Shown piece by piece: positions 5,997 to 61,584 of a stretch of 64,000 bases of DNA. Position numbers and translations under genes: made by a program. This stretch comes from a bacterium (GTDB lineage Bacteria > Armatimonadota > JACIXR01), in contig JACIXR010000004.1 of NCBI GenBank assembly GCA_014360495.1, positions 67,983 to 131,982 of the forward strand. The letters run 5' to 3'. Every line of letters starts with the position of its first letter. Within the stretch, counting starts at the first letter, position 1. The notes beneath the pieces are model-generated. The model was not told where the DNA came from and searched no databases. It saw only the letters and a program-made list of their open reading frames with translations.

Positions 5997-7373
5997 TTAT
6001 TGTTTCTGTGAACCCTTTATTTTCTTTGCGATTTCCTTTAATTTCTCTATAAGGACGACCAAATCATTTTTTCTTGGCAAAAAGATATCTTTTAATGATA
6101 TTTTCTCCAATTTTTGGAAGAAGATGAGAATGACGAAAAAAGCAAGGGAATAGGCAATTGAGGAGGCTATGCTCGCCCCAATTATCCCCCAGCGAGGGAT
6201 TAGAAGGAAATCTAAAAGGATGGTTAAGATGGAACCAGTGAGACTTCCGTATAAGTTATATTGGGGGTAACCTCTACCGAGGATATGGTGTGCGAGAAAA
6301 CCTGTATACATCCAGGATATTATGCCCGGGAGAAGGTAAGGAATGACAGAGATTGAGGGGCGAAACGCGGAACCGAATAGGAGGGGAATAATTAAAGGGG
6401 CGAAAAAATAGAGGATTAAAGCGGAAGGGAGGTAATAAAAGGGAAGAAGGCGGGTGAGTAAAGAGGTTAAACTCCTTGCCTCTTGAGGGGAAACAGATGA
6501 AACTTGGGGGAATAAAACGATGTGAATTGAAGCGGCGAAAAGCCGTAAAAGCTCTGTGTAGTTCACGCCGGTCATATATAACCCTACATGTCTAGCCCCT
6601 AAATACGCATTCACAACAAAGACATCAAATCGAGTATTGACCATCCACAGAATGTCTCCAAGGGAAATTACCGCGCCATATTTCAGCATGCCTTTTAATA
6701 CTTCCCTATTAAGGTGAGGGGAAAAATGCTCTGGGCGAATCACATCGTTCAGGAAATAGAAAGATAAAGCGGTGCTAATGGGGATTAAAAACCACTCAGA
6801 GGCTAAAGCCCCCCATACTCCCCATTTCAGTAGGATTAGGAAAGAGGCAAGGAGGACAAGGCGAAAAAAGATGGAGAGCGTGTTTATTAGGAAAGAATAA
6901 TTGAATCTTCTTAAAGCCAAAAGGCTATAGCTTAGAGGGGATAAGTAAACTGTTAATAAGCTGATGAGGAGAGAGACCCGTAGTAAAAGAGAGGGAACAC
7001 CCTTGAGGAAAGAGGAGGCGAGGTAGGGAGTTAGAAGAATGAAAGCGAATGTCAGGGGAAAGAAAAAATAGAGGACGAAGGAACAGAATGACCCGATTAT
7101 ATCCTTTATTGGGTATTTCTTATTCGCGATGAAATATTCAAGGGCGATAGGGAGACCCAAGAGGACCATTACCTGGTAGAAGGAAAGGAAGGTCTGGAGG
7201 GTATTGACTATTCCTTTTCCCCTTGGACCCAAATAGCGAGCGACTATAATTGAGCCGACTATTCCCAAGACAAAGGAGAGAATCCTTGAAGCAAAGTGAT
7301 AGATGACATTTACGCTGAAGGAAGGTGCGCTTCTATCTTTTCTTATGAGTTTTTCTATAGTCGTTCTAAACAT
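5997..7373 (-). CDS. Wzx-type oligosaccharide/O-antigen flippase (MOP superfamily polysaccharide biosynthesis protein)
   Basis: It encodes a 458-aa protein with about 12-14 hydrophobic helices and polysaccharide-biosynthesis-protein architecture. It is the last gene of the minus-strand sugar operon. Confidence 0.65.
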   Translation of the reverse strand: MFRTTIEKLIRKDRSAPSFSVNVIYHFASRILSFVLGIVGSIIVARYLGPRGKGIVNTLQTFLSFYQVMVLLGLPIALEYFIANKKYPIKDIIGSFCSFVLYFFFPLTFAFILLTPYLASSFLKGVPSLLLRVSLLISLLTVYLSPLSYSLLALRRFNYSFLINTLSIFFRLVLLASFLILLKWGVWGALASEWFLIPISTALSFYFLNDVIRPEHFSPHLNREVLKGMLKYGAVISLGDILWMVNTRFDVFVVNAYLGARHVGLYMTGVNYTELLRLFAASIHIVLFPQVSSVSPQEARSLTSLLTRLLPFYYLPSALILYFFAPLIIPLLFGSAFRPSISVIPYLLPGIISWMYTGFLAHHILGRGYPQYNLYGSLTGSILTILLDFLLIPRWGIIGASIASSIAYSLAFFVILIFFQKLEKISLKDIFLPRKNDLVVLIEKLKEIAKKIKGSQKQ

Positions 7374-8036: not shown

Positions 8037-9095
8037 TTAATAGCTTATTTCTTTATATATTTCAACAAGGCGATGCGCTAATTTCACTGCGTCGTGATAC
8101 TTTTCCGCATATTGACGACTTCGCTTGCCAATTTCATGTCGTAACTTTCCATCCTTTAGGAGATTTTCAAGAACATCCACCAGATTATCTTGGTTAGCAT
8201 TAACTATAGGCAAGTCGGGAGGATATTTTTCGCGAATAGAGGGTTTAATATAACAAATTACTGGTTTGCCAAAAGCCATAGCTTCTACACTCCCCATTCC
8301 GTAGAACCCCAAAACGAATTGGTCAAGGAATATATCAGCCCTCTGCATAATTTGGAGAGCTTCTCTATGAGGCATATTTTTAACTAAAATAAACTGAAAA
8401 TCGTGTTTTTCCTTTAATAACTCAACCGCTTTTAGCACGGCGCTGGTGCCCTTTAAAACTGGTTCGCTTGGAGCATGCACAACGATTGGGCGCCGAACAG
8501 TTGGGTCGGGATAGAAAGGCTTAAATTCCGAAAGGAAGAGACGTTGAAACACAAGATAACTCTTCGTCCAGAGGTTTGGGAAGAGATATTGTTGCATTTC
8601 GACTGGCACTATGCAAGCGAAACCCGATTTCGCAAACAAGCTTTGATTACGATACGATTTTTCTAAACTGACACCTCTAAGAGCTTTGTAATAATCCATG
8701 ATGGGTAATGAATAAGGGTTGTCTTTTGCCTCTACCTCGGGAATCCTTATATCTGAGCCTTGCCATTCAACAACACCGGGTTTTTTAAGAAGCTTTAAAT
8801 ATCCCAGGTCCATTCTTCCTAGGCGCGTTGGAAGGGCAGGTTCACCATAATACCAGTGAATAACATCCGCCCATTGGGCAAATTTTAAAAAAAGATATGT
8901 TGCTCGTATCCACACAATAACATAATTTGCTATTTTTTTTCTCGGAGGAAACCTTAAATTCACAAGTCCCTCAGAGGACCACATGGGCGAATTGTTATAT
9001 GCCAGGCTGCGAACATCAACTCCAATTTCCCTCAAACCTTTAACTGTGTGATACATATAGGAGGCAAGATTAACAGGGAGATGAAGAACCCTCAT
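8037..9095 (-). CDS. Glycosyltransferase, GT4-like
   Basis: The C-terminal domain has the motifs GFYGMGSVEAMAFGKPVIC and QYAEKY. An AAGGAG ribosome-binding site lies 8 nt upstream, so the likely true start is ATG at 9095 (MRVLHLPV...). The track ORF begins at an upstream in-frame ATG at 9137. Confidence 0.55.
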   Translation of the reverse strand: MRVLHLPVNLASYMYHTVKGLREIGVDVRSLAYNNSPMWSSEGLVNLRFPPRKKIANYVIVWIRATYLFLKFAQWADVIHWYYGEPALPTRLGRMDLGYLKLLKKPGVVEWQGSDIRIPEVEAKDNPYSLPIMDYYKALRGVSLEKSYRNQSLFAKSGFACIVPVEMQQYLFPNLWTKSYLVFQRLFLSEFKPFYPDPTVRRPIVVHAPSEPVLKGTSAVLKAVELLKEKHDFQFILVKNMPHREALQIMQRADIFLDQFVLGFYGMGSVEAMAFGKPVICYIKPSIREKYPPDLPIVNANQDNLVDVLENLLKDGKLRHEIGKRSRQYAEKYHDAVKLAHRLVEIYKEISY

Positions 9096-9097
9096 TT

Positions 9098-9208
9098 TTA
9101 TCGCTCCTTGATTTTGCGAGCGGGAACACCTGCCCATATTTTATAGGGCGGAACACTATCACGGATTTCTATATTCTCAAGATGGAAGGTGAGCACTTCT
9201 TTTTTCAT
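9098..9208 (-). pseudogene. 36-aa ORF resembling only the extreme C-terminus of a hexapeptide-repeat (LbH) acyltransferase; probable gene remnant
   Basis: The manual translation is MKKEVLTFHLENIEIRDSVPPYKIWAGVPARKIKER*. The 'VPPY.I.AG.PAR.I' stretch is the conserved C-terminal tail of LbH acetyltransferases. A good ribosome-binding site (AAAGGAGGGATACTAA ATG) precedes it. Its stop codon is 2 nt from the GT4 start. Confidence 0.35.
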
Positions 9209-12001: not shown

Positions 12002-12657
12002 CTTCCTCCTGTGTACAGATTGTGTTTGTAGATGTAGTTTTCAACTGTGTCCAAGACGAGATATTTTATCGGCTTGCCCTCCTTGACACGCCTGCGTATC
12101 TCGGTTGAAGAGATATTGATTTCCGTAATCTTGAGGAATTCAATGGAGTTATTGTTGATGGGGCGGAGCTTTTCCTTTACTTTCTCAATATCGTAGCCCG
12201 GGCGGGTCACGGCGATGAACTTGCAAAGCTGGAGGATTTCCCTTCCTTGTTTCCATGAAAGAATTTCCGCGATGGCATCAGCTCCCGTTATGAAATATAT
12301 CTCCGCTCCGGGATAGAGTTTGCGGAATTCCTTCACGGTATCAATGGCGTATGAGGGACCGCCCCGTTCTATTTCTATTCTTGATACCTCAAAATAGGGA
12401 TTGGTATAGATGGAGAGGAGAACCATAGCGTAGCGATGTTCGGGATTGGTTACGGGGACATCGGGTTTATGGGGAGGTTGGTAATTGGGGACGAAGATGA
12501 CCTTATCCAAGCCGAAGACGGCTCTCGCCTCCTCAGCGGCGACGAGATGACCTATATGAATGGGGTCAAAGGTTCCTCCCATTATTCCGATTTTCATATT
12601 ACTATAATTATCTCTTAGTTTGACTTTATCGTCAATATCGTATGTTTCCAAATTCAT
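11998..12657 (-). CDS. nadD: Nicotinate-nucleotide adenylyltransferase
   Basis: GIMGGTFDPIHIGHL and VIFVPNYQPPHK are present. The true start is probably the internal Met (MKIGIMGG), about 20 codons into the track ORF. Confidence 0.85.
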   Translation of the reverse strand: MNLETYDIDDKVKLRDNYSNMKIGIMGGTFDPIHIGHLVAAEEARAVFGLDKVIFVPNYQPPHKPDVPVTNPEHRYAMVLLSIYTNPYFEVSRIEIERGGPSYAIDTVKEFRKLYPGAEIYFITGADAIAEILSWKQGREILQLCKFIAVTRPGYDIEKVKEKLRPINNNSIEFLKITEINISSTEIRRRVKEGKPIKYLVLDTVENYIYKHNLYTGGR

Positions 12658-12705
12658 TGCTAAGAAGAAGATTCCTCCTTTATTGAAGTTAGGTTAAAAA
12701 ATTTG

Positions 12706-12733
12706 TTGACAAAATCACAAGTTGTGCTATAAA
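12706..12733 (+). promoter_or_regulatory. Sigma70-type promoter of the trp operon: TTGACA, a 16-nt spacer, then TATAAA(T)
   Basis: TTGACAaaatcacaagttgtgcTATAAAT lies 14 nt upstream of the leader ATG. Both hexamers are consensus or near-consensus. Confidence 0.55.
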
Positions 12734-12747
12734 TTAAGTAAATAAAA

Positions 12748-12822
12748 ATGAGTACCCCCTTCGTTGTTGCTATTATTTGGCAGTGGCAATGGACGAAGGG
12801 GGCGTATCCGCAGGCTGAATAA
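12748..12822 (+). CDS. trpL: trp operon leader peptide (24 aa) with three Trp codons within five residues
   Basis: The manual translation is ATG AGT ACC CCC TTC GTT GTT GCT ATT ATT TGG CAG TGG CAA TGG ACG AAG GGG GCG TAT CCG CAG GCT GAA TAA, giving MSTPFVVAIIWQWQWTKGAYPQAE*. It is too short to appear in the ORF track, and its ribosome-binding site is weak and AT-rich. Confidence 0.6.
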   Translation: MSTPFVVAIIWQWQWTKGAYPQAE

Positions 12823-12828
12823 AATTTT

Positions 12829-12872
12829 TCAGCCACGGGTATGCCCCCCAAGCGGGCATTACCCGTGGCTGA
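12829..12872 (+). promoter_or_regulatory. Attenuator hairpin. TCAGCCACGGGTATGCCC pairs with GGGCATTACCCGTGGCTGA (about 18 bp). Its 3' arm can alternatively pair with the 5' arm of the terminator, acting as an antiterminator
   Basis: It starts 7 nt after the leader stop codon. ACCCGTGGCT (12861-12870) is complementary to AAGCCACGGGT (12908-12918). A further 10-bp pairing, CCCCCTTCGT (12755-12764) with ACGAAGGGGG (12793-12802), brackets the Trp codons. Confidence 0.55.
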
Positions 12873-12907
12873 ACGGGTAGCCCTCCTTAATTCCCCCCAA
12901 CCTTAAT

Positions 12908-12943
12908 AAGCCACGGGTAATAAAGCCCGTGGCTTATTTTTTT
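12908..12943 (+). terminator. Rho-independent attenuator/terminator upstream of trpE: AAGCCACGGG-taataaag-CCCGTGGCTT, then ATTTTTTT
   Basis: It is a perfect 10-bp GC-rich stem followed by a run of seven T, located between the leader peptide and the trpE ribosome-binding site (AAGGAGGTG). Confidence 0.65.
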
Positions 12944-12958
12944 AAGGAGGTGACTACA

Positions 12959-14395
12959 TTGGAGCCTGCGAAAAACGAGTTTAAAAAATTGGCAAAACAG
13001 TTTGAGTTAATCCCTGTATGGGATTCCTTCCTCTATGACGAGGAAACGCCGATTTCCCTGTTCAGGAAGTTAGCGGGAAAAGAAAGATATGCATTCCTCT
13101 TGGAGAGCGCCGAAAGGGGTGAGGTGCTGGGAAGATATTCCTTCATAGGCTATAAACCGACCTTTGTCTGGGAGACAAGGAACGGAGAAGACCCTCTGAA
13201 GCCCCTGCGTCAACATGTTCTCTCCAAGAAATCTCCCTTAATAGAAGGCTTGCCTCCTTTTCTCGGTGGTGCAGTTGGATTCATAGGGTATGACGCGATA
13301 AGAATCTGGGAGAGATTGCCGAGTTGGGGGATTGATGACCTCCGCCTACCGACCTCAATTATGATGCTCTTCCATACCGTTCTCATAATAGACCATCTTA
13401 AGAGGGACCTGACAATCGTCAGGATGGTTGAGGTGGAGGATGATGCTGATTCAGCTTATAACCGAGCGAGGGACAGCATAGATGAGCTTAAAAGGATGTT
13501 GTTGAGTCAGGGAAGGAATTCCAATGGAGTTGTCTTGGAAAGGGGGAAAAGAACTATGGGAGAAATAGAAACGAGCATAAGCGATGAGGAATTCATAAAG
13601 GCGGTTGAGCGGGCAAAGGGCTATATTGAGGCAGGTGATATATTCCAAGTCGTTCTCTCGCGTCGTTTCGCCCTTCCCTTTGAGGGAAATCCCTTTGATG
13701 TCTATCGCATACTCCACAGCATAAATCCTTCCCCTTATATGTTCTATTTAAAGATGGGGGATTTGGAGTTGGTGGGTTCCTCTCCGGAGGTAATGGTGAG
13801 GGTACAGAATGGGGTTGTGACGCAGAGGCCGATAGCGGGAACGAGACCGAGGGGAAGGACGCCTGAGGAGGATAAGCGGTTAGAGAGCGAGCTTCTCGCT
13901 GATGAGAAGGAGAGGGCGGAGCATCTAATGCTCGTTGACCTCGCAAGGAACGATGTAGGCAAAGTCTGCGAGTATGGGAGCGTTGTTGTGCCTCGTTTTA
14001 TGGTGATTGAACGCTATTCCCATGTTATGCATATCGTTTCCTATGTTGAGGGGAAGTTGAGGGAGGATAAGGACGCTTTGGATGCTCTCCAAGCTTCCTT
14101 TCCCGCCGGCACTGTTTCGGGAGCGCCCAAGGTAAGGGCTATGGAGATAATTGAGGAATTGGAGCCAGTGAGAAGGGGACCATATTCAGGCGTTGTGGGT
14201 TATCTCAGCTTCAACGGCAATTTGGATACCTGCATAACAATCAGGACGGCGGTTTTCCATAGAGGGAAGGTTTATGTGCAGGCGGGAGCGGGCATCGTGG
14301 CTGATTCCAATCCCCAGAGGGAACTTCTGGAAATAGAGAATAAGGCAAAGGCATTGATAAAGGCGATAGAAAAGTATCAGGAGGGAGAGCTATGA
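12959..14395 (+). CDS. trpE: Anthranilate synthase component I
   Basis: The motifs [49 protein letters not shown] and CITIRT are present. The likely start is TTG at 12959, 6 nt after the AAGGAGGTG ribosome-binding site. The track's GTG at 12929 lies inside the terminator stem. Confidence 0.9.
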
Positions 14396-14961
14396 GGATA
14401 CTGCTGATAGATAATTACGATTCCTTTGTTTATAACTTGGCACAGTATCTGGGAGAGTTGGGATGCGAGCTGGTTGTTTTCCGCAACGACCAAATATCGC
14501 TGGATGATGTAGGGGAATTGAAACCAGAGGCAATAGTGATATCGCCTGGTCCGGGAAGACCTGAAGATGCCGGCATCTGCGTTGAGGTGATAAGACGCTA
14601 CGGGGGAAGGATTCCCATCTTCGGCGTTTGTTTGGGTCATCAGGCGATTGGCTACGCCTTTGGAGGGGATATCGTGAAGGCGAGGAAACTGATGCACGGG
14701 AAGGTCTCTCTCATTCACCACAATGGAAAAAGCGTTTTCAGCGGTATTCCTTCTCCCTTTTTCGCCACTCGCTATCATTCCTTGGCGATTAAAAGGGAAA
14801 GCCTCCCATCTTGTTTGGAGCTCCTCGCTTGGACTGATGATGGAGAGGTGATGGCGGTAAAACACAAGGATTTCTACATCGTGGGGGTGCAATTTCACCC
14901 TGAATCAATAGCAACTCAATATGGCAAGGAAATTTTGAAAAACTTTTTGGAAAGGAGGTAA
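14392..14961 (+). CDS. trpG: Anthranilate synthase component II (glutamine amidotransferase)
   Basis: It has [26 protein letters not shown] and GVQFHPES (a class I GATase catalytic triad). Its start overlaps the trpE stop in an ATGA arrangement. Confidence 0.9.
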
Positions 14962-14966
14962 GAAAA

Positions 14967-15995
14967 ATGAAACATGTTTTGGAAAAGCTTTTGGATAAGC
15001 GGAATCTCGCTATGGAGGAGGCTTATGGGGTAATGAGCGATATAATGGAGGGGAAGACGACACCAGCGCAAATCGGGGCGTTTCTCATTGCTTTGCGGTT
15101 GAAGGGCGAAACTGTTGATGAGGTATCGGGCTTCGCTCAGGCGATGAGGGATAAGGCATTGAGATTGGAGTATCCAGGAAATCTGTTGGATACCTGTGGA
15201 ACTGGCGGAGACGGGATGGGAACTATAAACATATCAACTCTCTCCGCTTTCGTCGTAGCTGGTGCGGGAGTGAAGGTGGCTAAGCACGGAAACCGTTCCG
15301 TATCCTCGCTCTGTGGCAGCGCCGATTTGCTGGAGGGGTTGGGCGTTAAAATTGATATTCCTCCCTCTACGGCGAAGAGATGTTTGGATGAGTGCAATTT
15401 CTCATTTCTCTTCGCTCCCCTTTATCATCCTGCTATGCGCTATGCAGCTGGTGCGCGGAAAGAGATTGGGGTTAGAACGGTTTTCAACATCCTTGGTCCC
15501 TTGACGAATCCCGCAAGGGTGAAAAGACAATTGCTTGGAGTGTTTTCCCCCTCTCTGACATCCTTTATCGCCTCTGTATTGGGAAGGTTGGGGGTGGAAA
15601 GGGCTATGGTTGTGAGTAGTTTGGACGGAATGGATGAAATCTCCGTTTCTGCACCTACGAAAGTGAGCGAGCTAAGGGATGGGACGATTTTGGAATATAC
15701 GATAGAGCCTGAGAGGCTTGGTGTTAGAAACCATCCCTTGGAGGAACTAAAGGTTAAAAGCAAGGAGGAAAGCGTAAGGATAGCGGAGGAGATATTAGCT
15801 GGCGAGAGAGAAGGGGCGGTTATGGATGCTGTGCTTATCAATTCGGCTGCCGCTTTAATCGTTGCGGGAATGGCTGATGATTTAAAGGGGGGAATGGAGA
15901 TAGCGAGGGAGTCCATTAGGATGGGATTAGCGATGAGAGTATTGGAAACTCTGCGGAGAATAAGCGAGGAGGAAAAGAGAAATGGGAATCCTTGA
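14967..15995 (+). CDS. trpD: Anthranilate phosphoribosyltransferase
   Basis: It has GTGGDG, NISTLSAFVVAGAGVKVAKHGNRSVSS and FNILGPLTNPA. Confidence 0.9.
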   Translation: MKHVLEKLLDKRNLAMEEAYGVMSDIMEGKTTPAQIGAFLIALRLKGETVDEVSGFAQAMRDKALRLEYPGNLLDTCGTGGDGMGTINISTLSAFVVAGAGVKVAKHGNRSVSSLCGSADLLEGLGVKIDIPPSTAKRCLDECNFSFLFAPLYHPAMRYAAGARKEIGVRTVFNILGPLTNPARVKRQLLGVFSPSLTSFIASVLGRLGVERAMVVSSLDGMDEISVSAPTKVSELRDGTILEYTIEPERLGVRNHPLEELKVKSKEESVRIAEEILAGEREGAVMDAVLINSAAALIVAGMADDLKGGMEIARESIRMGLAMRVLETLRRISEEEKRNGNP

Positions 15996-16746
15996 GGACA
16001 TAATCTCGGCAAAGAGAGAGGAGATAAAATTTCTTAAGTCCGTTCCAATTTCCTTCCCCTCTTTCGTCCTTCCCAGGCGAGATTTTAAATTAGCCCTCCA
16101 ATCAGATGAAATTTCTATAATCGGGGAATTGAAGAAGTGCTCTCCATCGGCGGGAATTATAAGGGAGGATTTCGTTCCCGAGATTTTGGCCAAGGAGATG
16201 GAGGAAGGAGGGGCAAAGGCTTTATCGGTTTTAACGGATAATAAATTTTTCTGTGGTTCTCTTGGTTACATCCCTGGTGTCAAGCTCAAGACGAATTTGC
16301 CGATAGTAATGAAGGATTTCGTGATTGACGAATTTCAGATAGAGCTCGCTCACAAATTGGGAGCGGATGCAGTTCTTTTAATTGCTCGCTGTTTGAAGAG
16401 AGAAGAGGTTAAGAGGTTTTTGGAAATCTCAAGAAGATACGGAATGCATTGCTTGGTTGAGATTTTTGACGAGGAGGATTGGGAGAAGATTAAAGGATTG
16501 CCTTTAGAGATAGTGGGGATAAACAGCAGGGATTTGAGAAGCTTCAATGTTAATTTTGAAAGGATTATTCAGCTTAAAGATTTGCTACCCAAGGATATTC
16601 TGATTGTGGCGGAGAGTGGAGTTAGAGAGAGGGAGCAAATTGAGAGGTTGAGGGAAGCGGGGGTAAAAGCGGTTTTAATTGGGGAGGCATTGATGAGGGC
16701 TAAGGATGTTAAGGCTAAGTTAAGGGAGCTGATGGGAGAATGTTGA
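15982..16746 (+). CDS. trpC: Indole-3-glycerol-phosphate synthase
   Basis: It has IGELKKCSPSAG, KDFVIDEFQI and VVGINSRDL. Confidence 0.9.
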   Translation: MGILEDIISAKREEIKFLKSVPISFPSFVLPRRDFKLALQSDEISIIGELKKCSPSAGIIREDFVPEILAKEMEEGGAKALSVLTDNKFFCGSLGYIPGVKLKTNLPIVMKDFVIDEFQIELAHKLGADAVLLIARCLKREEVKRFLEISRRYGMHCLVEIFDEEDWEKIKGLPLEIVGINSRDLRSFNVNFERIIQLKDLLPKDILIVAESGVREREQIERLREAGVKAVLIGEALMRAKDVKAKLRELMGEC

Positions 16747-17333
16747 GGGTTAAAATTTGCGGGATAACGAATTTGGAGGATGCGCTTATGGCTGTGGAGT
16801 TGGGAGCAGATGCACTGGGTTTCATATTCGCCGATTCTCCAAGGAGAATTGATAGGGAGAAAGCGAGGAAAATCATTTCAAAGTTGCCGCCTTTTATAAC
16901 AGCTGTTGGCGTCTTTGTGAATGAGAGAAGGGAGTTAGTGGAGGAAATAGCTAATGAATGTGGGTTGGACGCGCTGCAATTTCACGGTGAGGAAACTCCC
17001 GATTATTGTAGTCAATTCAGGAAGAAAGTTATAAAGGCTTTTAAGATTAGGACAAAAGATGACTTGGAGAGATTGAGATATTACGATGTGTCCGCATATC
17101 TTTTGGATAGTTCGGTGAGGGGCACTTCTTTTAATTGGGACTTACTGATTGGCTTTCGTTCGGAGAAGCCAATCATTTTGGCTGGCGGATTGAATCCAGA
17201 TAATATAAGCTCCGCTTTGAGCAAATTCCTTCCCTATGGTATTGATGTATCAAGCGGAGTTGAGGAATATCCTGGTAAGAAGGATAGAGAGAAATTGAAG
17301 AAGTTTATGGAGGTGATAAAGAAATGGCGATAA
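16740..17333 (+). CDS. trpF: Phosphoribosylanthranilate isomerase
   Basis: It has [21 protein letters not shown] and [10 protein letters not shown]. Confidence 0.85.
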
Positions 17334-18490
17334 AGGGCTATTTCGGAGAATTTGGAGGGAGATTTGTCCCCGAGACCCTCGTTCCCGCTCTTGAAGAGTT
17401 GGAAAATGCCTACGAGAGGCTAAGGAATTCAAGCGAATTCAAAGCCAAACTCCAGTATTATTTGAGAAACTATGCGGGAAGACCTACTCCCTTGTATTTT
17501 GCTGAGAGGCTTACAAGGGAGCTTGGTGGTGCGAGAATTTATCTAAAGAGGGAGGATTTGCTTCATACCGGTGCCCATAAGATAAACAACGCGATTGGGC
17601 AGGCTCTCTTGGCGATGGAAATGGGGAAAAGAAGGATAATAGCTGAGACGGGGGCTGGTCAGCACGGCGTAGCCACAGCCACCGTATGCGCCCTATTCGG
17701 ACTGGATTGTGTCATCTATATGGGAGAGGAGGATATGAGGAGGCAGAAATTGAATGTCTTTAGGATGAAGCTTCTGGGGGCGGAGGTCGTTCCCGTAAAA
17801 AGCGGCTCAAGGACTCTAAAAGATGCGATAAATGAAGCGCTGAGGGATTGGATAACGAATGTGGATACGACCCATTACCTTCTAGGCTCGGTCGTCGGTC
17901 CTCATCCCTATCCAACGATAGTGAGGGATTTCCAATCCGTGATTGGAGAGGAAACGAGGAGGCAAATCTTGGAGATTGAGGGCAGACTTCCCGATTATCT
18001 CATAGCGTGTGTGGGAGGAGGAAGCAATTCCATAGGTTTTTTCCATCCTTTTTTCAATGATAGAGAGGTTAAGTTCGTAGGGGTGGAAGGCGGTGGAAAT
18101 GAAAGGGGGCATTCGGCTTCCTTGGGGAAGGGTAGGGTAGGGGTTTTGCACGGTAGCAAAACTTATCTACTTCAGGATGAGAAGGGGCAGATAATGACTA
18201 CTCACTCAATTGCGGCGGGATTAGATTATCCCGGCGTTGGTCCCGAGCACGCCTTCTATAAGCAGATAGGGAGGGCTGAATATGTGGCTGTATCGGATAG
18301 TGAAGCTCTTGAGGCTTTTGAGATTTTATCCCGCCTGGAGGGGATAATTCCTGCCCTTGAAAGCGCCCATGCGATTGCATATTGCCTGGAATTAGCCCCC
18401 AAATGCCCAAAGGATAGCGTGATAATCGTCAATCTCTCCGGAAGAGGCGACAAGGATTTGAGCGAGATAATGGAGGTGATGGAGAGATGA
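17324..18490 (+). CDS. trpB: Tryptophan synthase beta subunit
   Basis: It has [16 protein letters not shown] (the PLP lysine) and GGGSNSIG. Confidence 0.95.
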
Positions 18491-19275
18491 ATAGGATTGA
18501 TTATCTGTTTAAGGACAATAAATTCGCTCATATTTTCTATTTAACTGTGGGCGAGTTTCCCATTGAGGAGGAATTGGAGATAATTCATGCCTTGACCGAA
18601 AGCGGCGCGGATTGCCTTGAATTGGGAATACCCTTTTCCGACCCCCTTGCCGATGGAGCGACCATCCAAGAGGCTATGCAGGAGGCTCTCAAGAGAGGAA
18701 CTTCTTTGAAGGACGCTTTGGTGTTCGTAGAGAGGATAAGGGAAAGCTCCGATATACCCCTTCTCTTGATGGGCTATTACAATCCATTCTATCAGTACGG
18801 AATAGAGAGGATTTGTAGAGATGCGAGGGAGAGGGGAGTGGATGGATTCATAATACCCGATTTGCCACCAGAGGAAGCGAAAGAGCTAGTGGAACACGCC
18901 AATAGATACGATTTGCGCACTGTCTTCCTTTTGGCTCCAACAAGCAATGAGGAGAGATATAGGATAGTTGGTTCAGCGACGACGGGGTTCATTTATTATG
19001 TTTCCGTGAAAGGGACTACGGGGGAGAGAGATGAATTGCCAAGGGATATAGAGGAGAAGGTTCCGAGGATAAAGGAGATAACGGGCAAGCCCGTAGTGGT
19101 TGGATTCGGGATTTCCAAGCGGGAGCACGTTAAATGGCTAAGGAGATTCGCTGATGGAGCTGTGATAGGCTCTGCCCTCCTTCGCCTTTTAAAGGAGCAC
19201 AGAAATGATAAAGAGAGGATGTTGAAAGAGGTGAGGCGATTTGTCTCCGACCTCTGCAAGGATGATGCTATTTGA
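18487..19275 (+). CDS. trpA: Tryptophan synthase alpha subunit
   Basis: It has [24 protein letters not shown] and VVGFGIS. Confidence 0.9.
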
Positions 19276-19278
19276 GAG

Positions 19279-20535
19279 CTAAGCGAACTTCTCCGCTTCT
19301 TCCTTGGCTATCCTCACCGTTTCCCTTAGCCTCTCCGGCTGGTTTCTGCAGGTATGGATGTCCTTGAAGATTATCTCAACGACGCAATCTCTTGTTTTCT
19401 CCAGCGCATCCCTCACCATTTTCCTCACAAATTCACCATCAAATTGTTCAGCAGCGAAGATGGGAGCGGGATTGGGCTTCCAGGAGAAAATTGCCCTTTT
19501 GCCCAATCTTTCCGCTCCCTCAGCGACATCAACCCAGGGGCTCATGGATAGTCTGCGGAGATGAGGGATATGTTTTAAGATTATCTCAACCTTCTTGTGT
19601 AGCGGTTCACAGCAGCCGTAAGAGGCTAAGCCGAATCTTGAGAGGAACTTGCCCTCATATTGGAGGGCGAATTCCTCATGCATAGCGGGGGAAACACAGG
19701 CGAATATCTGGGTTGTGGCATGACCCCAAAGGTCCTTCGTCCTTACATGAACGCCATCAAAATCGGGTTGAGGAAGCTCGTCCGTGAACCCCAAACCTCC
19801 TGAGCCACAGTAATGTGCCCCATTATTCAAGCTCAAAACATTTTCCCGTTCATAGAAATCAAGCATCTCCAGCCAAGCGTCAGTCAAAAAGCTGAGCGCG
19901 CGATGGAGCCATTGAGGACGTTCAATCATATCAATGAATAATTGGTCAAATCCCCGCCAGGTGGCGAAGTCGTCTATGATGGCAAACCAGAAATGAGCTG
20001 GACCCCTTTTCTCAACTTTTAGAATATCTCCCACTAAATCGCAAAGTTTCTCGTAATGCTCCTCCGTAGCTTTCCAATCTATCCACAGCCTTGGCTTCTG
20101 CAATTTCTCCAAATCCTTCTCCTCTCTTATCACCGGCTCATATTTCACGGCTCCGTAAGGGTCATCAGGAGAGGTCGTTTGGGGAGCAATTCCAAATCCT
20201 GTGTTATGAATGTAGATTGGCGAGGCAATGGTATCGGTTATAACGCTGTCATCCTGGATGAATTCAGCGTAGTAAAGCCTCATTCTTAGGTCATATTCAA
20301 CCCCTCGGCAAAATGGGTCGGAGCAGGAAAGGCTTTCCCAGGGGAGGACTTCTCGCCAGGAGCCTTCAGGGAAAATGAGGACAAGCGGTCTTATCCTCTT
20401 GAGGGAGTTGTGCTGCTTCCATATCCTCGCCATTTCCTCTTGGCGAGGTTGATGGGCATATTCAGCTACCCTCTTCGCTAAATCCCTTATTAAGGTTATG
20501 TCCCTTTCGGGGAATTTTCCTAAATTCTCTCCCAT
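19279..20535 (-). CDS. Hypothetical protein, possibly a URO-D/MtaA-like TIM-barrel fold, encoded in a carbohydrate-utilisation cluster
   Basis: It is a 418-aa protein without a signal peptide. It is convergent with trpA and co-directional with the downstream sugar isomerase genes. No confident family motif was found; the URO-D-like call is a weak impression only. Confidence 0.3.
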   Translation of the reverse strand: MGENLGKFPERDITLIRDLAKRVAEYAHQPRQEEMARIWKQHNSLKRIRPLVLIFPEGSWREVLPWESLSCSDPFCRGVEYDLRMRLYYAEFIQDDSVITDTIASPIYIHNTGFGIAPQTTSPDDPYGAVKYEPVIREEKDLEKLQKPRLWIDWKATEEHYEKLCDLVGDILKVEKRGPAHFWFAIIDDFATWRGFDQLFIDMIERPQWLHRALSFLTDAWLEMLDFYERENVLSLNNGAHYCGSGGLGFTDELPQPDFDGVHVRTKDLWGHATTQIFACVSPAMHEEFALQYEGKFLSRFGLASYGCCEPLHKKVEIILKHIPHLRRLSMSPWVDVAEGAERLGKRAIFSWKPNPAPIFAAEQFDGEFVRKMVRDALEKTRDCVVEIIFKDIHTCRNQPERLRETVRIAKEEAEKFA

Positions 20536-43481: not shown

Positions 43482-44648
43482 ATGAAAACAAACCAAATTT
43501 ATTCAAACGATGAGACTATGTCCAATTTGAATGATTTTGAGAAAGTGGTTGATATAATCCTCAATATAGCGGATTTCAATGCCATTGAGCAGGGAAAAGA
43601 GAGGCAATCCGCTATTTGGGAGAATAGAGAGCCTGACTATCTTCCGATAATTTTGAGCGATTGGAATACCCCAGAGCTGAAGGGATTTAAACACTGGACC
43701 CTTAAGGAGCAGTTTTACGATAAGGAAAAGATGTTGCTTGAGCAGTTGAAAGGCTTGGTTGGGATAGCTAAAACTCACAGCGATGCCCAATTGTGCATAA
43801 GGGTTAATATGGGGGTGGGAATCCTTCCCAGCGTTTTCGGTCTGCGTGCTGTGTTCCCGCAAGACGACCAGATGCCCTGGTTTATTGGCAATCTCTCAAA
43901 GGAAGAGATATTAAGGTTAGAAATGCCATCCGATATCAGGCAGAGAGGGCTTATGCCATTTATTATTGAATATCTCCAATACTTCAAAAGCGTTCTTCCC
44001 GAGGGAATCCATATATATTGCTTTGACACTCAGGGGCCATTTGATATCGCCCATTTAATAAGAGGGCATCAAATCTACTTTGACTTATACGATGACCCCG
44101 AAGCCGCACATCATCTTTTAGATATATCAACGCAACTCTATATTGAAGCAACGAAGATATTCAAGGAAATAGTTGGCGAGCCCTTTTGCTCTGGCTATCA
44201 TGGAACGCTTTATATGAGCGGAGGAGGAGTGCGTCTTTGCGACGATTCCTCCGTCAATCTCTCTCCCTCTCTCTTCAAGGAGTTTTCTCTCCCATACATA
44301 AAGAGGGCGCTTGCTCCCTTTGGTGGAGGGTGGGTACATTTTTGTGGAGATGGTAATCATCTTTTGGATATGTATTTGGAGTTGGAAGAGGTGAAGGGAT
44401 TGAATTTCGGAAATCCAGAGAAATACGATTACGAGAAGACGATGGAGAAGATAACCTCAAAGGGAAAGTTTTATGTCGGTTATATTCCGAGAAGGGAAAA
44501 GGAGAGTTTGGAGGATTATTTTAAGAGAATCCTGTCGCCCCTGAAGAGCAAGAGGGGGTTAATTCTGCAGATGAATAGAGGAGGGGAAAGCGCCTCAGAA
44601 ACGCTTGACTTATGGCGTTCCTTACAGGATAAACTCTTTAGTTATTAG
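43482..44648 (+). CDS. Uroporphyrinogen-decarboxylase-like (URO-D superfamily) protein of unknown function
   Basis: It is 388 aa. [16 protein letters not shown] resembles the URO-D/MtaA HxCG region. It is the second such paralog in the window. Confidence 0.45.
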
Positions 44649-59506: not shown

Positions 59507-60004
59507 ATGGGAAATTTTTGGACCAATTTCCAATTTTATGTGCCCTATCTCGTTATCGCTGATACCTTTTTGGCGCTACTCTCCATTTTCCTCATCCTAT
59601 CCCTTGTAGGAAGAGTGAGGGAGACAAAGCGCCTCCTCAAGTGGCTTTCCGAGGCCGAAAGGGTAGAGGATGTGAGGTTGCTTCTTCAAAGACAGAGGGT
59701 TTTTATGGACGAGGTTGAGAGGAACTTCAATCACCTAAGGGAAAAACTTGAAGAGTTAAATATAAAACAACTTGATAACATCCAGAAGGTGGGTTTCATC
59801 CGCTTTGACGCCTTCAAGGATATAGGTGGTGAGCTGAGTTTTTCCCTCGCCTTGCTCAATGGAAAGAACGAGGGAGTTGTTATAAGCAGTCTGCACGGGA
59901 GGGAAGGTTCAAGGGTTTATGGGAAAACAGTAAAGGACGGTGTCTCCAGCTTCCCCCTTTCAGATGAGGAGAAGGAAGCAATAAAGAGGGCGTTGGGTGA
60001 TTGA
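59507..60004 (+). CDS. DUF4446-family membrane protein
   Basis: It has an N-terminal TM helix. VGFIRFDAFKDIGGELSFSLALLNGKNEGVVISSLHGREGSRVYGK and a C-terminal LSDEEKEAIKRA match the DUF4446 pattern. Its stop overlaps the chaperonin start. Confidence 0.5.
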   Translation: MGNFWTNFQFYVPYLVIADTFLALLSIFLILSLVGRVRETKRLLKWLSEAERVEDVRLLLQRQRVFMDEVERNFNHLREKLEELNIKQLDNIQKVGFIRFDAFKDIGGELSFSLALLNGKNEGVVISSLHGREGSRVYGKTVKDGVSSFPLSDEEKEAIKRALGD

Positions 60005-61584
60005 AGATGGCTGGAGAGGTTAAGAATGTATCTAAATCTGATGTAGACGAGAGGTTATCAGCCCTATTGAACAATGCGTCGGCGATTAGGGCTGTTGCCT
60101 CCTCCGTTGAGGGGACGATAGGTCCCAAGGGGCTGAACTGTATGCTTGTTGATAGGTTTGGTGATGTCGTGATTACGAACGATGGAGCGACGATATTGAG
60201 CAAGATAGAAGTGAATCATCCCGCTGGGAAGATGCTGATAAACGCGGCTAAGGCGCAGGATGAGGAAGTGGGGGATGGAACAACAACTGTAACCCTTCTT
60301 GCCTCAGCTCTCATCTCCGAGGGAGTTAATCAGGTCATAAGGGGAGTGCCAATCGCTAAGGTGATAGAGGGGATAAGAGTGGGGATAAAAAGGGCGATTT
60401 CTCTTTTGGAGAAGCACAGCAGACCGATAGAGGATTTCTCATCCCCTCTTTTGTATCGCGCCGCTTATGTTGCTGGGAGGGAAAACGAGGACATCGCTAG
60501 GATAGCGGTTGAGGCGGCGAAAATTATGGGGAAGGAGAAGCTTCTTGACCCTTCTTTCAAATTGAAAGATATGGTAGTGGCGAAGGAGGGAGCGGAAAAC
60601 GAGGTGTTTCTGGGATTGATTATAGAGAAGGAAAGGATGAATCGGCAGATGCCACGCCGAGTTGAGCAAGCTCAAATCTTGGTCGTTGACGACGCCTTGG
60701 AGCCGGAGGAGATAGAGGATGACGCCCTCGCGACCGAGAGCGGTTTCAGGGAATATCAGAGGTTGAAGGAGGAATTCAAGAAAGGAATTGAAAAAATCAT
60801 ATCACTAGGAGTTAAGTTCGTAGCGGTTTCAAAGGGGGTGGATAGAGTAGCGGAGGAGATGCTGACGGATGCGGGTGTGATGGTTTTGAGGCGTCTTTCC
60901 AACAAGGATATAAGCAAGATATCGGAGCATACTGGTGCGAAGCCGATAAAGAGGACATCCCTGGCGAAGAGCAAGGAGGAGTTGCAGTCATTCCTTGGCT
61001 ATGCCGATGTGATATATCACGACGAGAGATTGGAACATACACGGATAATAGGAGGGAAGGGCAAGCCTATGGCGACAATTCTCGTGGGTGCAGCAACGGA
61101 GGAGGTGAAGGAGGAAACGGAGAGGATTGCGAAGGACGCCGCAGCTGCTGTCCAGATGGCGATGAAGGGTGGGGTCTTGCCGGGAGGTGGAGCTATTGAG
61201 CTCTATGCGATAAAGGAGGTTCAGAAGGCGAGGGAGGAGATAAAGGGGATGGCTGTTTACGGGGTAGATTGCGTCATAGAGGCTCTCAAGAAGCCACTCA
61301 CCCACATAGTCCTAAATGCCGGCTTCAATCCTCTTGAGAAAATCGGTGATGTCCTAGCCAGACAGGCTAAAGAGGATAACGACGCTTTGGCAATAGATTG
61401 CGATACGGGAGAGGTTGTGGATATGATGGAATTGGGGATAGTTGACCCAACTCCGGTGAAGATATTTGCCCTCAAGACAGCGGGAGAGCTCGCCGAGGCA
61501 ATTCTGAGGATAAACATGATAATAAAGAAGAAGGAGGAACCACCATCTGAGGAAAAGGAGTCAACGGAAAAGGGGAACATTTGA
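60001..61584 (+). CDS. Thermosome/CCT-like (group II-type, 'archaeal-like') chaperonin, 527 aa
   Basis: GPKGLNCMLVDRFGDVVITNDGATIL..AGKML...AQDEEVGDGTTTVTLLA matches the thermosome signatures (GPKGMDKMLVD..GD.VITNDGATIL, ...DDEVGDGTT). It lacks the GroEL N-terminal motif and the GGM tail. The length is typical of group II/III chaperonins. Confidence 0.8.
   Translation: MKMAGEVKNVSKSDVDERLSALLNNASAIRAVASSVEGTIGPKGLNCMLVDRFGDVVITNDGATILSKIEVNHPAGKMLINAAKAQDEEVGDGTTTVTLLASALISEGVNQVIRGVPIAKVIEGIRVGIKRAISLLEKHSRPIEDFSSPLLYRAAYVAGRENEDIARIAVEAAKIMGKEKLLDPSFKLKDMVVAKEGAENEVFLGLIIEKERMNRQMPRRVEQAQILVVDDALEPEEIEDDALATESGFREYQRLKEEFKKGIEKIISLGVKFVAVSKGVDRVAEEMLTDAGVMVLRRLSNKDISKISEHTGAKPIKRTSLAKSKEELQSFLGYADVIYHDERLEHTRIIGGKGKPMATILVGAATEEVKEETERIAKDAAAAVQMAMKGGVLPGGGAIELYAIKEVQKAREEIKGMAVYGVDCVIEALKKPLTHIVLNAGFNPLEKIGDVLARQAKEDNDALAIDCDTGEVVDMMELGIVDPTPVKIFALKTAGELAEAILRINMIIKKKEEPPSEEKESTEKGNI

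Follow-up and report, generated by a model that had tools for sequence, protein, structure and literature searches.

We analysed a 64,000-nucleotide stretch of DNA (hereafter "the window") from contig JACIXR010000004.1 of the bacterial genome assembly GCA_014360495.1, and focus here on the leader region that precedes its tryptophan biosynthesis operon. The operon occupies positions 12959..19275 of the forward strand in the order trpE-trpG-trpD-trpC-trpF-trpB-trpA, and NCBIfam equivalog matches for all seven genes bear out the gene content given in a first-pass annotation of the sequence. The first gene has the ribosome-binding site AAGGAGG (12944-12950) and a TTG start codon at 12959 (together 12944..12961, forward strand), and translation from 12959 matches TIGR00564 trpE_most at 558 bits (cut-off 517.7). 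The first-pass annotation proposed that the region upstream of trpE is a leader-peptide transcription attenuator that follows the logic of Escherichia coli trpL.

A sigma-70-type promoter lies upstream of the leader at 12706..12733 on the forward strand. As annotated, it consists of a -35 element TTGACA (12706-12711), a 16-nt spacer and a -10 element TATAAA (12728-12733); the program-made promoter list for the window pairs this -35 element with a shifted -10. Orthologous loci have an invariant TTGAC and, in all cases, a TATnAT-like -10 box with a spacer of 16-17 nt. Judged by promoter spacing, transcription would start at about 12740-12741. An open reading frame (ORF) of 24 codons resembling trpL follows at 12748..12822 (forward strand, ATG start), which would encode the peptide MSTPFVVAIIWQWQWTKGAYPQAE and ends at a stop codon. 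Its three candidate regulatory Trp codons (W11, W13 and W15; TGG at 12778, 12784 and 12790, or 12778..12792 on the forward strand) fall within five codons, just as had been reported. For comparison, Trp makes up 1.3% of the proteins of the window, and 2 of its 590 small ATG-initiated ORFs have at least three Trp per five codons. The second such ORF, at 16780-16899 on the forward strand, also has three Trp in five codons; it lies out of frame inside trpF and is judged to be a chance occurrence. The -10 box is 14 nt from the leader ATG in the window and in most orthologues (10-15 nt across all), and because of this spacing the 5' untranslated region would be only about 7 nt long and A/U-rich.

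The RNA that follows is highly structured. Folding of 12740-12950 yields -102.7 kcal/mol, compared with -62.2 +/- 4.1 kcal/mol for dinucleotide shuffles (z = -9.9; none of 200 shuffles folded as well). Local folding resolves a chain of five mutually exclusive hairpins (A, X, B, AT and T), which are built from six switching segments on the forward strand: S0 (12755-12765), S1 (12793-12820), S2 (12828-12848), S3 (12854-12873), S4 (12905-12921) and S5 (12925-12938). The terminating fold combines A (S0:S1), B (S2:S3) and T (S4:S5), and the read-through fold combines X (S1:S2) and AT (S3:S4).

Hairpin A (S0:S1a, 12755..12802; -27.7 kcal/mol at 37 C) joins the arms CCCCCTTCGT and ACGAAGGGGG and encloses the Trp codons. 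Hairpin X (S1:S2, 12798..12848; -36.9 kcal/mol) carries the leader stop codon (12820-12822) at its tip. Its 5' strand, S1, begins just past the final Trp codon and extends as far as the leader stop, and the 5' arm of hairpin B (S2:S3, 12828..12873; -35.7 kcal/mol) serves as its 3' strand. B is the long hairpin that had been noted downstream of the leader. Its arms, 12828-12841 and 12860-12873, are indeed perfect over 14 nt, and the hairpin begins 6 nt after the stop codon rather than the 7 nt originally given. The modeled pairings would make B an anti-antiterminator that holds S3 and leaves the terminator free to form.

The putative antiterminator AT (S3:S4, 12858..12921; -25.3 kcal/mol) pairs 12858-12870 with 12909-12921 over 13 bp. 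The first of these stretches, ATTACCCGTGGCT, is 100% complementary to the second, AGCCACGGGTAAT, which belongs to the 5' arm of the terminator; the earlier claim that a single segment can pair either within the hairpin behind the leader or with the terminator thus holds. The intrinsic terminator T (S4:S5, 12905..12943; -23.9 kcal/mol) has a 14-bp stem, 12905-12918 with 12925-12938. Its arms are 100% complementary over 12905-12917 and 12926-12938, seven of its 14 pairs are G-C, and a run of seven T (12937-12943) stands directly before the trpE ribosome-binding site, as first described. When terminators are searched for strictly, with a perfect stem of 9 or more and 6 or more T, this one is the single site returned in the 64 kb.

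These structures are linked by common strands: AT and T have S4 in common, AT and B have S3, and B and X have S2. The origin of this ambiguity is evident in the sequence, as the arms directly repeat one another, giving each strand two possible partners. Over 24 nt, identity between S1 and S3 is 71%; S2 and S4 both contain the 11-mer AGCCACGGGTA, and S3 and S5 both contain CCCGTGGCT. Three copies of AGCCACGGGTA occur in the window, all within the leader, where 0.37 would be expected. This pattern suggests that the leader grew by duplication of one hairpin module.

The six segments require a revision of the original model, which mapped the leader onto the four-segment (1:2, 2:3 and 3:4) scheme of E. 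coli trpL. Leader-peptide attenuation itself is supported, while the four-segment mapping, in which hairpins A and X were missed, fails. Segment 1 in that mapping begins at 12828, which lies 36-50 nt downstream of the Trp codons, and thus a stalled ribosome cannot mask it. The four-segment scheme therefore lacks a connection between the ribosome and the switch, and X supplies this link. With X and A added, the layout is of the six-segment type known from his leaders rather than the four-segment type of E. coli trpL.

We consider it likely that this leader is a ribosome-mediated transcription attenuator, through which expression of trpEGDCFBA would be set by the supply of charged tRNA-Trp. All support for this assignment is computational, with anatomy, mutually exclusive pairings and conservation in agreement, and the response to tryptophan is what these features would imply. 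When tryptophan is plentiful, a ribosome would pass the three UGG codons, cover S1 and come to the stop codon at the tip of X. With X blocked, S2 would pair with S3 to form B, S4 would be left free, T would form and the transcript would end near 12943. Conversely, when Trp-tRNA is scarce, the ribosome would stall at 12778-12792, upstream of S1, and X would form once S2 has been made. S3 would then be free to pair with S4 as AT, T would not form, and RNA polymerase would enter trpE. Formation of X before B is possible might trap X kinetically. Hairpin A, which any translating ribosome would melt, is a candidate pause or synchronization hairpin comparable to the 1:2 hairpin of E. coli.

To place the leader in a comparative context, orthologous loci were collected by TrpE similarity. 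A TrpE-anchored scan of species-representative genomes yielded four relatives at 70-80% identity, all of them metagenome-assembled genomes (MAGs), with the next matches at 53% or less. Four further contigs at 93-94% came from a metagenome scan, and six loci at 74% from a protein search combined with contig look-ups. As the first-pass annotation would lead one to expect, a leader with three or four Trp codons is found in all 13 clade loci (TrpE at least 70% identical) that have upstream DNA. The orthologous leader peptides are 21-24 amino acids long, with Trp runs of WQWQW, WWWQW, WNWQW or WWQW, and read MKTPFSIATLWQWQWMKGAYP, MENPFIPAINWWWQWMKGAYPRAK, MQNPFIYAHNWQWQWMKGAYPMAE, MVASFTIARNWWQWMKGARLG, MKNPFIVAINWWWQWMKGAYPEAE and MQNPFIYAINWNWQWLKGAYLQVE, each followed by a stop codon, in addition to near-identical copies of the window peptide.

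Outside the clade, an upstream ORF with three Trp in six codons occurs at only two of the 143 more distant trpE loci. In a Candidatus Sumerlaeota MAG (L011), an unrelated upstream ORF at about 345-430, MSVRRWWWAFAPCR with its stop codon, has three consecutive Trp codons roughly 195 nt before trpE. Its region does not fold significantly (z = +0.63) and lacks a clear terminator; the ORF could be an independent Trp leader peptide. At another locus (L126), the upstream ORF reads VWHWWLAHQ before its stop codon.

A leader profile searched with nhmmer gives one match per clade locus, always directly 5' of trpE, and no match anywhere else, whether in about 150 other loci or in the remainder of the window. 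We found 14 copies of the leader RNA, all upstream of trpE. The order of the trp genes is unchanged in the orthologous loci as far as those loci reach. In one of them (L164) the upstream neighbor gene differs and the leader still precedes trpE, which indicates that the leader belongs to the trp operon.

Conservation of the pairings was scored in an alignment of 12 orthologous sequences, which are few and related, with slid pairing partners as controls. The terminating set (A, B and T) is 94.5% paired, compared with 35-47% in the slid controls, and includes five pairs with compensatory change. Similarly, the read-through set (X and AT) is 95.7% paired, compared with 28-46%, with two compensatory pairs. 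Both alternatives of the mutually exclusive fold proposed earlier are thus conserved. Individually, AT is 100% paired, T 97.9%, B 97.8% (with compensatory changes at its base), X 93% and A 89%. Hairpin A has one compensatory change from G-C to A-U, which is non-synonymous on both sides (V/I and T/M). Hairpin X has a change from U-A to C-G in L004 and several G-U/A-U switches. Changes between the codons GCG and GCA, and between TAT and TAC, swap G-U for A-U or C-G pairs. Most arm positions are invariant and the covariation signal is modest, because every strand must fit two partners.

Conservation of the peptide follows a different pattern. The C-terminal residues of the leader vary (YPQAE, YLQVE or ARLG) with pairing maintained, and the comparison points to constraint on the leader at the RNA level rather than the peptide level. 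The ATG and TGG codons are invariant or retained across the orthologues, and the frame is kept despite insertions and deletions. The leader ATG itself is invariant and unpaired in the 12 sequences. The first Trp codon lies in a loop, such that RNA pairing offers no explanation for its conservation.

To model the effect of translation, nascent transcripts of nine orthologues were folded with a 29-nt ribosome footprint forced to be single-stranded. When the footprint is at the stop codon, the probability of X is 0.00 in all nine; B is predicted in all nine once S3 is available, and T is predicted at full length. In two loci (L081 and L161), AT briefly outweighs B just before S5 emerges under the stop-codon footprint. 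A footprint at any Trp codon gives X a probability of at least 0.76 in the nine orthologues once S2 emerges. For the window, the probability of AT before S5 emerges is 0.86-0.98 with a Trp-codon footprint versus 0.00 with the footprint at the stop codon. In silico, therefore, formation of X is predicted to depend on the position of the ribosome.

The same procedure was applied as a positive control to E. coli trpL, with the sequence taken from a RefSeq genome. Here the terminator has a probability of 0.95 in every full-length state, and the 2:3 antiterminator reaches 0.48-0.84 under a Trp stall versus 0.19 at the stop codon, only before segment 4 is made. Because full-length folding of the E. 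coli leader is also dominated by the terminator, the stage before emergence of the last terminator arm is the informative one. The window leader is predicted to behave like a canonical kinetic switch. The barrier for refolding from X to B, estimated with findpath at 18-21 kcal/mol, supports kinetic trapping.

Two additional features of the leader may tune the switch. The first is a hairpin, termed H3, formed by S3 and a further segment, S3' (12854..12883, forward strand; -18.7 kcal/mol), with GGCU of S3 displayed in its loop. S3' directly repeats the 3' portion of S2, and H3 is a degenerate duplicate of hairpin X. H3 is present in all nine folded orthologues (-13.6 to -19.0 kcal/mol) and is 87% paired in the 12-sequence alignment, which contains no compensatory change in its register. 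The barrier from X plus H3 to B is 29-34 kcal/mol. In these models H3 may lock S3 away from S2, and the GGCU of its loop may serve as a toehold for S4.

The second feature is an anti-Shine-Dalgarno (anti-SD) stretch, CCTCCTTAA (12882..12890, forward strand), which is 100% complementary to TTAAGGAGG at 12942-12950. The corresponding helix, which is part of the minimum free energy fold, could close over the terminator and cover the trpE ribosome-binding site. Complements of the SD of 7-9 bp (CCUCCUU or CACCUCC), at shifting positions, occur in seven of the eight orthologues that yielded a result; the complement is absent from L004, and L161 gave no result. The anti-SD stretch may add translational silencing of trpE.

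Several observations weigh against the attenuator assignment. At full length and at equilibrium, the terminator is the predicted outcome for the majority of ribosome states, most Trp stalls included; exceptions are L002 and L166, in which the probability of T is 0.05-0.25 under a stall at the first Trp codon. We rejected terminator-dominant full-length folding as a refutation, since E. coli trpL gives the same outcome. Furthermore, little energy separates X from B, and for several orthologues the quasi-equilibrium model switches to B when the ribosome is stalled at certain positions. Folding of the window leader with no ribosome present predicts a mixed state and not clean termination, and hairpin A overlaps X by 5 nt only. 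H3 introduces another difficulty. It can capture S3 locally in competition with AT; the combination of H3 and T exceeds AT in stability, and a nested model puts the H3-to-AT barrier at 14-19 kcal/mol. This value is an upper bound, because findpath cannot represent a pseudoknotted loop-toehold route. Given this competition, read-through requires that AT displace H3 within about 20 nt of synthesis. Finally, no SD sequence precedes the leader ATG in the window or in any orthologue. The 5' untranslated region of about 7 nt adds to this difficulty, and translation of the leader is suggested by conservation, namely by the invariant start codon and the preserved frame.

There is precedent for leader peptides of this kind. 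The ilvB leader peptide of Corynebacterium (C. glutamicum) is translated with no ribosome-binding site, according to the statement in PMC10272879 that cites its reference 16, and the leaderless Cys upstream ORFs of mycobacteria provide an SD-less regulatory example (bioRxiv 10.1101/834739). These share with the window leader a regulatory upstream ORF and a very short or absent 5' untranslated region, which in the window is placed at about 7 nt by promoter spacing.

Other explanations for the conserved leader can be weighed against these data. The switch might be thrown by a trans-acting factor, such as an RNA-binding protein that recognizes H3 or the thrice-repeated CACGGGUA-type motif, or by a small ligand, with the upstream ORF being incidental. 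Such a factor would find three direct copies of a (C)ACGGGTA motif, would account for a conserved H3 that is superfluous in a simple ribosome model, and would be compatible with the missing SD. However, the repeats are already explained by the two pairing partners of each arm, and an incidental ORF would not be expected to keep its ATG and three or four TGG codons in every orthologue, in a frame preserved despite insertions and deletions, or to retain a looped Trp codon that pairing does not explain. The leader matches no known RNA family, T-box or TRAP site, and annotation of the neighboring genes with NCBIfam reveals no candidate regulator gene adjoining the operon. We therefore regard control by a trans-acting factor as improbable. 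A nascent peptide that senses free tryptophan and stalls the ribosome at or near the stop codon, in the manner of TnaC, is more improbable still. The hallmarks of TnaC are conserved Trp, Asp and terminal Pro residues whose spacing is fixed, the Pro being followed immediately by the stop codon. The peptide examined here is Trp-rich and partly conserved (PF...W.W.W.KGAYP), and in L001 the stop codon does directly follow Pro. This arrangement is confined to L001, whereas Pro is replaced by Leu in L164 and absent in L004, and there is no conserved Asp at TnaC-like spacing; a TnaC-type peptide was rejected on these grounds. Moreover, the conserved residues coincide with pairing segments, and the C-terminus varies among the forms already listed and YP followed directly by the stop, with the pairs kept. 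A stall at the stop codon under high tryptophan would in any case mask X only as a normally terminating ribosome does, so arrest is not needed.

Alternatively, the terminator could be largely constitutive and control mainly translational through pairing of the anti-SD with the SD, or the leader transcript could be a trans-acting small RNA. The perfect 9-nt complement to the trpE SD, with its equivalents in most orthologues, and the thermodynamic dominance of H3 plus T are both in keeping with a translational mechanism. The small-RNA variant has a precedent in rnTrpL of Sinorhizobium, an attenuator transcript that acts in trans as a small RNA (PMC6614838). Yet with a strong constitutive stop before the only copy of the trp operon seen, the genes could not be expressed; moreover, AT is fully conserved in its pairing, and L004 lacks the anti-SD. 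No target of such a small RNA was found, although none was sought. Translational and small-RNA functions could also be layers added to attenuation rather than alternatives to it, and as replacements for attenuation we give them little credence.

Well-known classes of trp regulators do not account for the leader. Rfam matched no family in the whole window at gathering score, hence no tRNA or rRNA, and at E <= 10 the region 12500-13100 has no T-box (RF00230), Trp_leader (RF00513), His_leader or other family. A T-box leader, which the first-pass annotation likewise did not expect, is ruled out by the lack of an RF00230 match at either level. TRAP binds arrays of about 9-11 (G/U)AG triplets that are spaced 2-3 nt apart and overlap the antiterminator. 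Only three scattered (G/U)AG triplets are present in 12741-12958, which rules out a TRAP-type leader, again as originally proposed. In Bacillus subtilis, TRAP acts on trpE through both transcription attenuation and an SD-sequestering hairpin. The window leader may resemble that system in having a second, translational layer, suggested by the upstream stretch complementary to the trpE SD; the sensor in B. subtilis is a protein, whereas here it would be a ribosome on an upstream ORF.

The pathway is the same as that of E. coli trpL (RF00513). In both leaders UGG codons cluster in a small upstream ORF, trpE is immediately preceded by an intrinsic terminator, antiterminator and terminator have a strand in common, and masked folding gives the same pattern; as in E. 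coli, ribosome position would make the decision in the window leader. In E. coli, however, the stalled ribosome masks the first of four segments, whereas the window leader has six and a stall upstream would leave S1 free. The E. coli leader has two adjacent Trp codons and the window leader three in alternate positions. The stems of the window leader (13-20 bp, -24 to -37 kcal/mol at 37 C) also exceed those computed for E. coli (about -13 to -18 kcal/mol). In addition, the window leader has no RF00513 match, its ORF lacks an SD, and H3 and the anti-SD are extra.

Six segments are found in the his leaders of Salmonella and E. coli, which pair as A:B, C:D and E:F or, alternatively, as B:C and D:E. 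Like these, the window leader uses three hairpins for termination and two shifted ones for read-through, its regulatory codons are located at the first hairpin, and the terminating ribosome would mask the second segment. The amino acid is different, and the likeness is one of architecture only, with no match to the Rfam His_leader family. The window leader further differs in the small overlap of A and X (5 nt only), in the direct repeats S1/S3, S2/S4 and S3/S5, and in the additional H3.

Beyond Proteobacteria, the trp attenuators of Corynebacterium and Streptomyces have UGG codons in pairs or triplets, poly-U terminators rich in G+C, and conserved triple-complementary motifs common to antiterminator and terminator (PMC1262725). 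These actinobacterial attenuators resemble the window leader in being of the classical type in a non-proteobacterial lineage, with multiple UGG codons and a motif common to both structures. They differ in lineage and sequence, which are unrelated, and in having been described as the four-segment type; the corresponding motif of the window is AGCCACGGGUA / UACCCGUGGCU. The architecture is thus closest to the his leader, and the pathway and codon logic are closest to E. coli trpL and the actinobacterial trp attenuators.

On the other side of the leader, the genes upstream of the trp operon, nadD, an LCP-family transferase and rsfS, are divergent. The orientation of nadD rules out the possibility that the terminator is the 3' end of an upstream gene. 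As listed, the nadD ORF starts at 12657 on the minus strand, and the NadD profile match begins only at residue 19. An alternative ATG start at 12597 on the minus strand would give MKIGIMGGTFDPIHIGH, and a promoter-like site on the minus strand (TTGACG, 17 nt, GATAAT; 12635 to 12607) fits this start. With nadD starting at 12597, the region between trp and nadD is 361 nt long and has divergent promoters. For annotation, the gain is a 24-codon ORF and a terminator inside an intergenic region that would otherwise be blank. Downstream, a minus-strand ORF at 19279-20535 converges on the end of trpA. It is one of four ORFs of 366-458 amino acids that have no NCBIfam match at the thresholds used, the others being 5997-7373, 8037-9137 and 43482-44648.

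The window probably derives from an uncultured lineage, known from MAGs, that lies near Armatimonadota and is hyperthermophilic. Placement by single proteins is indicative only: for IleRS, the best named relatives outside the clade (53-56%) are overwhelmingly Armatimonadota (Fimbriimonadales, strains GBS and GXS, and Candidatus Fervidibacter), the relatives of a chaperonin at 60-65% are Bacillota and Armatimonadota, and those of TrpE at 56% are Margulisiibacteriota. No marker protein points to Proteobacteria; the first-pass annotation had called the E. coli-like logic notable if the lineage is non-proteobacterial. The fraction of IVYWREL residues is 0.444 over 12,303 residues of the proteins of the window. 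The Zeldovich relation, which links this fraction to optimal growth temperature, predicts optimal growth at about 81 C. At 75 C the hairpins of the leader have predicted stabilities of -7 to -16 kcal/mol, as calculated for the attenuator of E. coli at 37 C, and the long stems of the window reach E. coli-like stabilities at 70-75 C. Because of this match, the long G+C-rich stems look like a thermal adaptation.

Other contents of the window include the chaperonin, encoded at 60001-61584 on the forward strand, which is thermosome-like rather than a GroEL. In NCBIfam it matches archaeal thermosome subunits best, at about 290 bits and below the cut-offs, and its relatives are named "TCP-1/cpn60 family", making it a bacterial chaperonin of group II/III type. 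The window is also rich in sugar-active genes, among them a GH106 rhamnosidase, a fucose isomerase and many GT4 glycosyltransferases.

A more elaborate interpretation would combine these features into multi-layer attenuation adapted to about 80 C. It would consist of a nearly leaderless upstream ORF that lacks an SD, a seven-segment relay in which H3 is a kinetic lock and GGCU a toehold for the antiterminator, and anti-SD silencing of trpE on terminating folds. We consider this full scheme unlikely and put it forward only tentatively. If it were true, tight coupling of transcription and translation would drive gene control in a bacterial hyperthermophile, and a loop-toehold step would join the repertoire of attenuation.

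As a ribosome-sensed attenuator, the leader is a well-conserved new example of a known control device, and the device itself is not of a new kind. In 2010, when a first case in Firmicutes was described, the view was that leader peptides are largely confined to Proteobacteria and Actinobacteria (PMC2965389), and leader-peptide attenuation is documented mostly in those two groups, with scattered reports from Firmicutes (PMC2965389, PMC1262725). Our literature search found no paper linking Armatimonadota, tryptophan and attenuators. The leader would represent a compact, well-defined and clade-restricted RNA family that is missing from Rfam. It would extend a textbook mechanism, with strong comparative support, to a probably hyperthermophilic lineage near Armatimonadota, where it may offer a natural setting in which to study the tuning of kinetic RNA switches, and of transcription-translation coupling, to high temperature.

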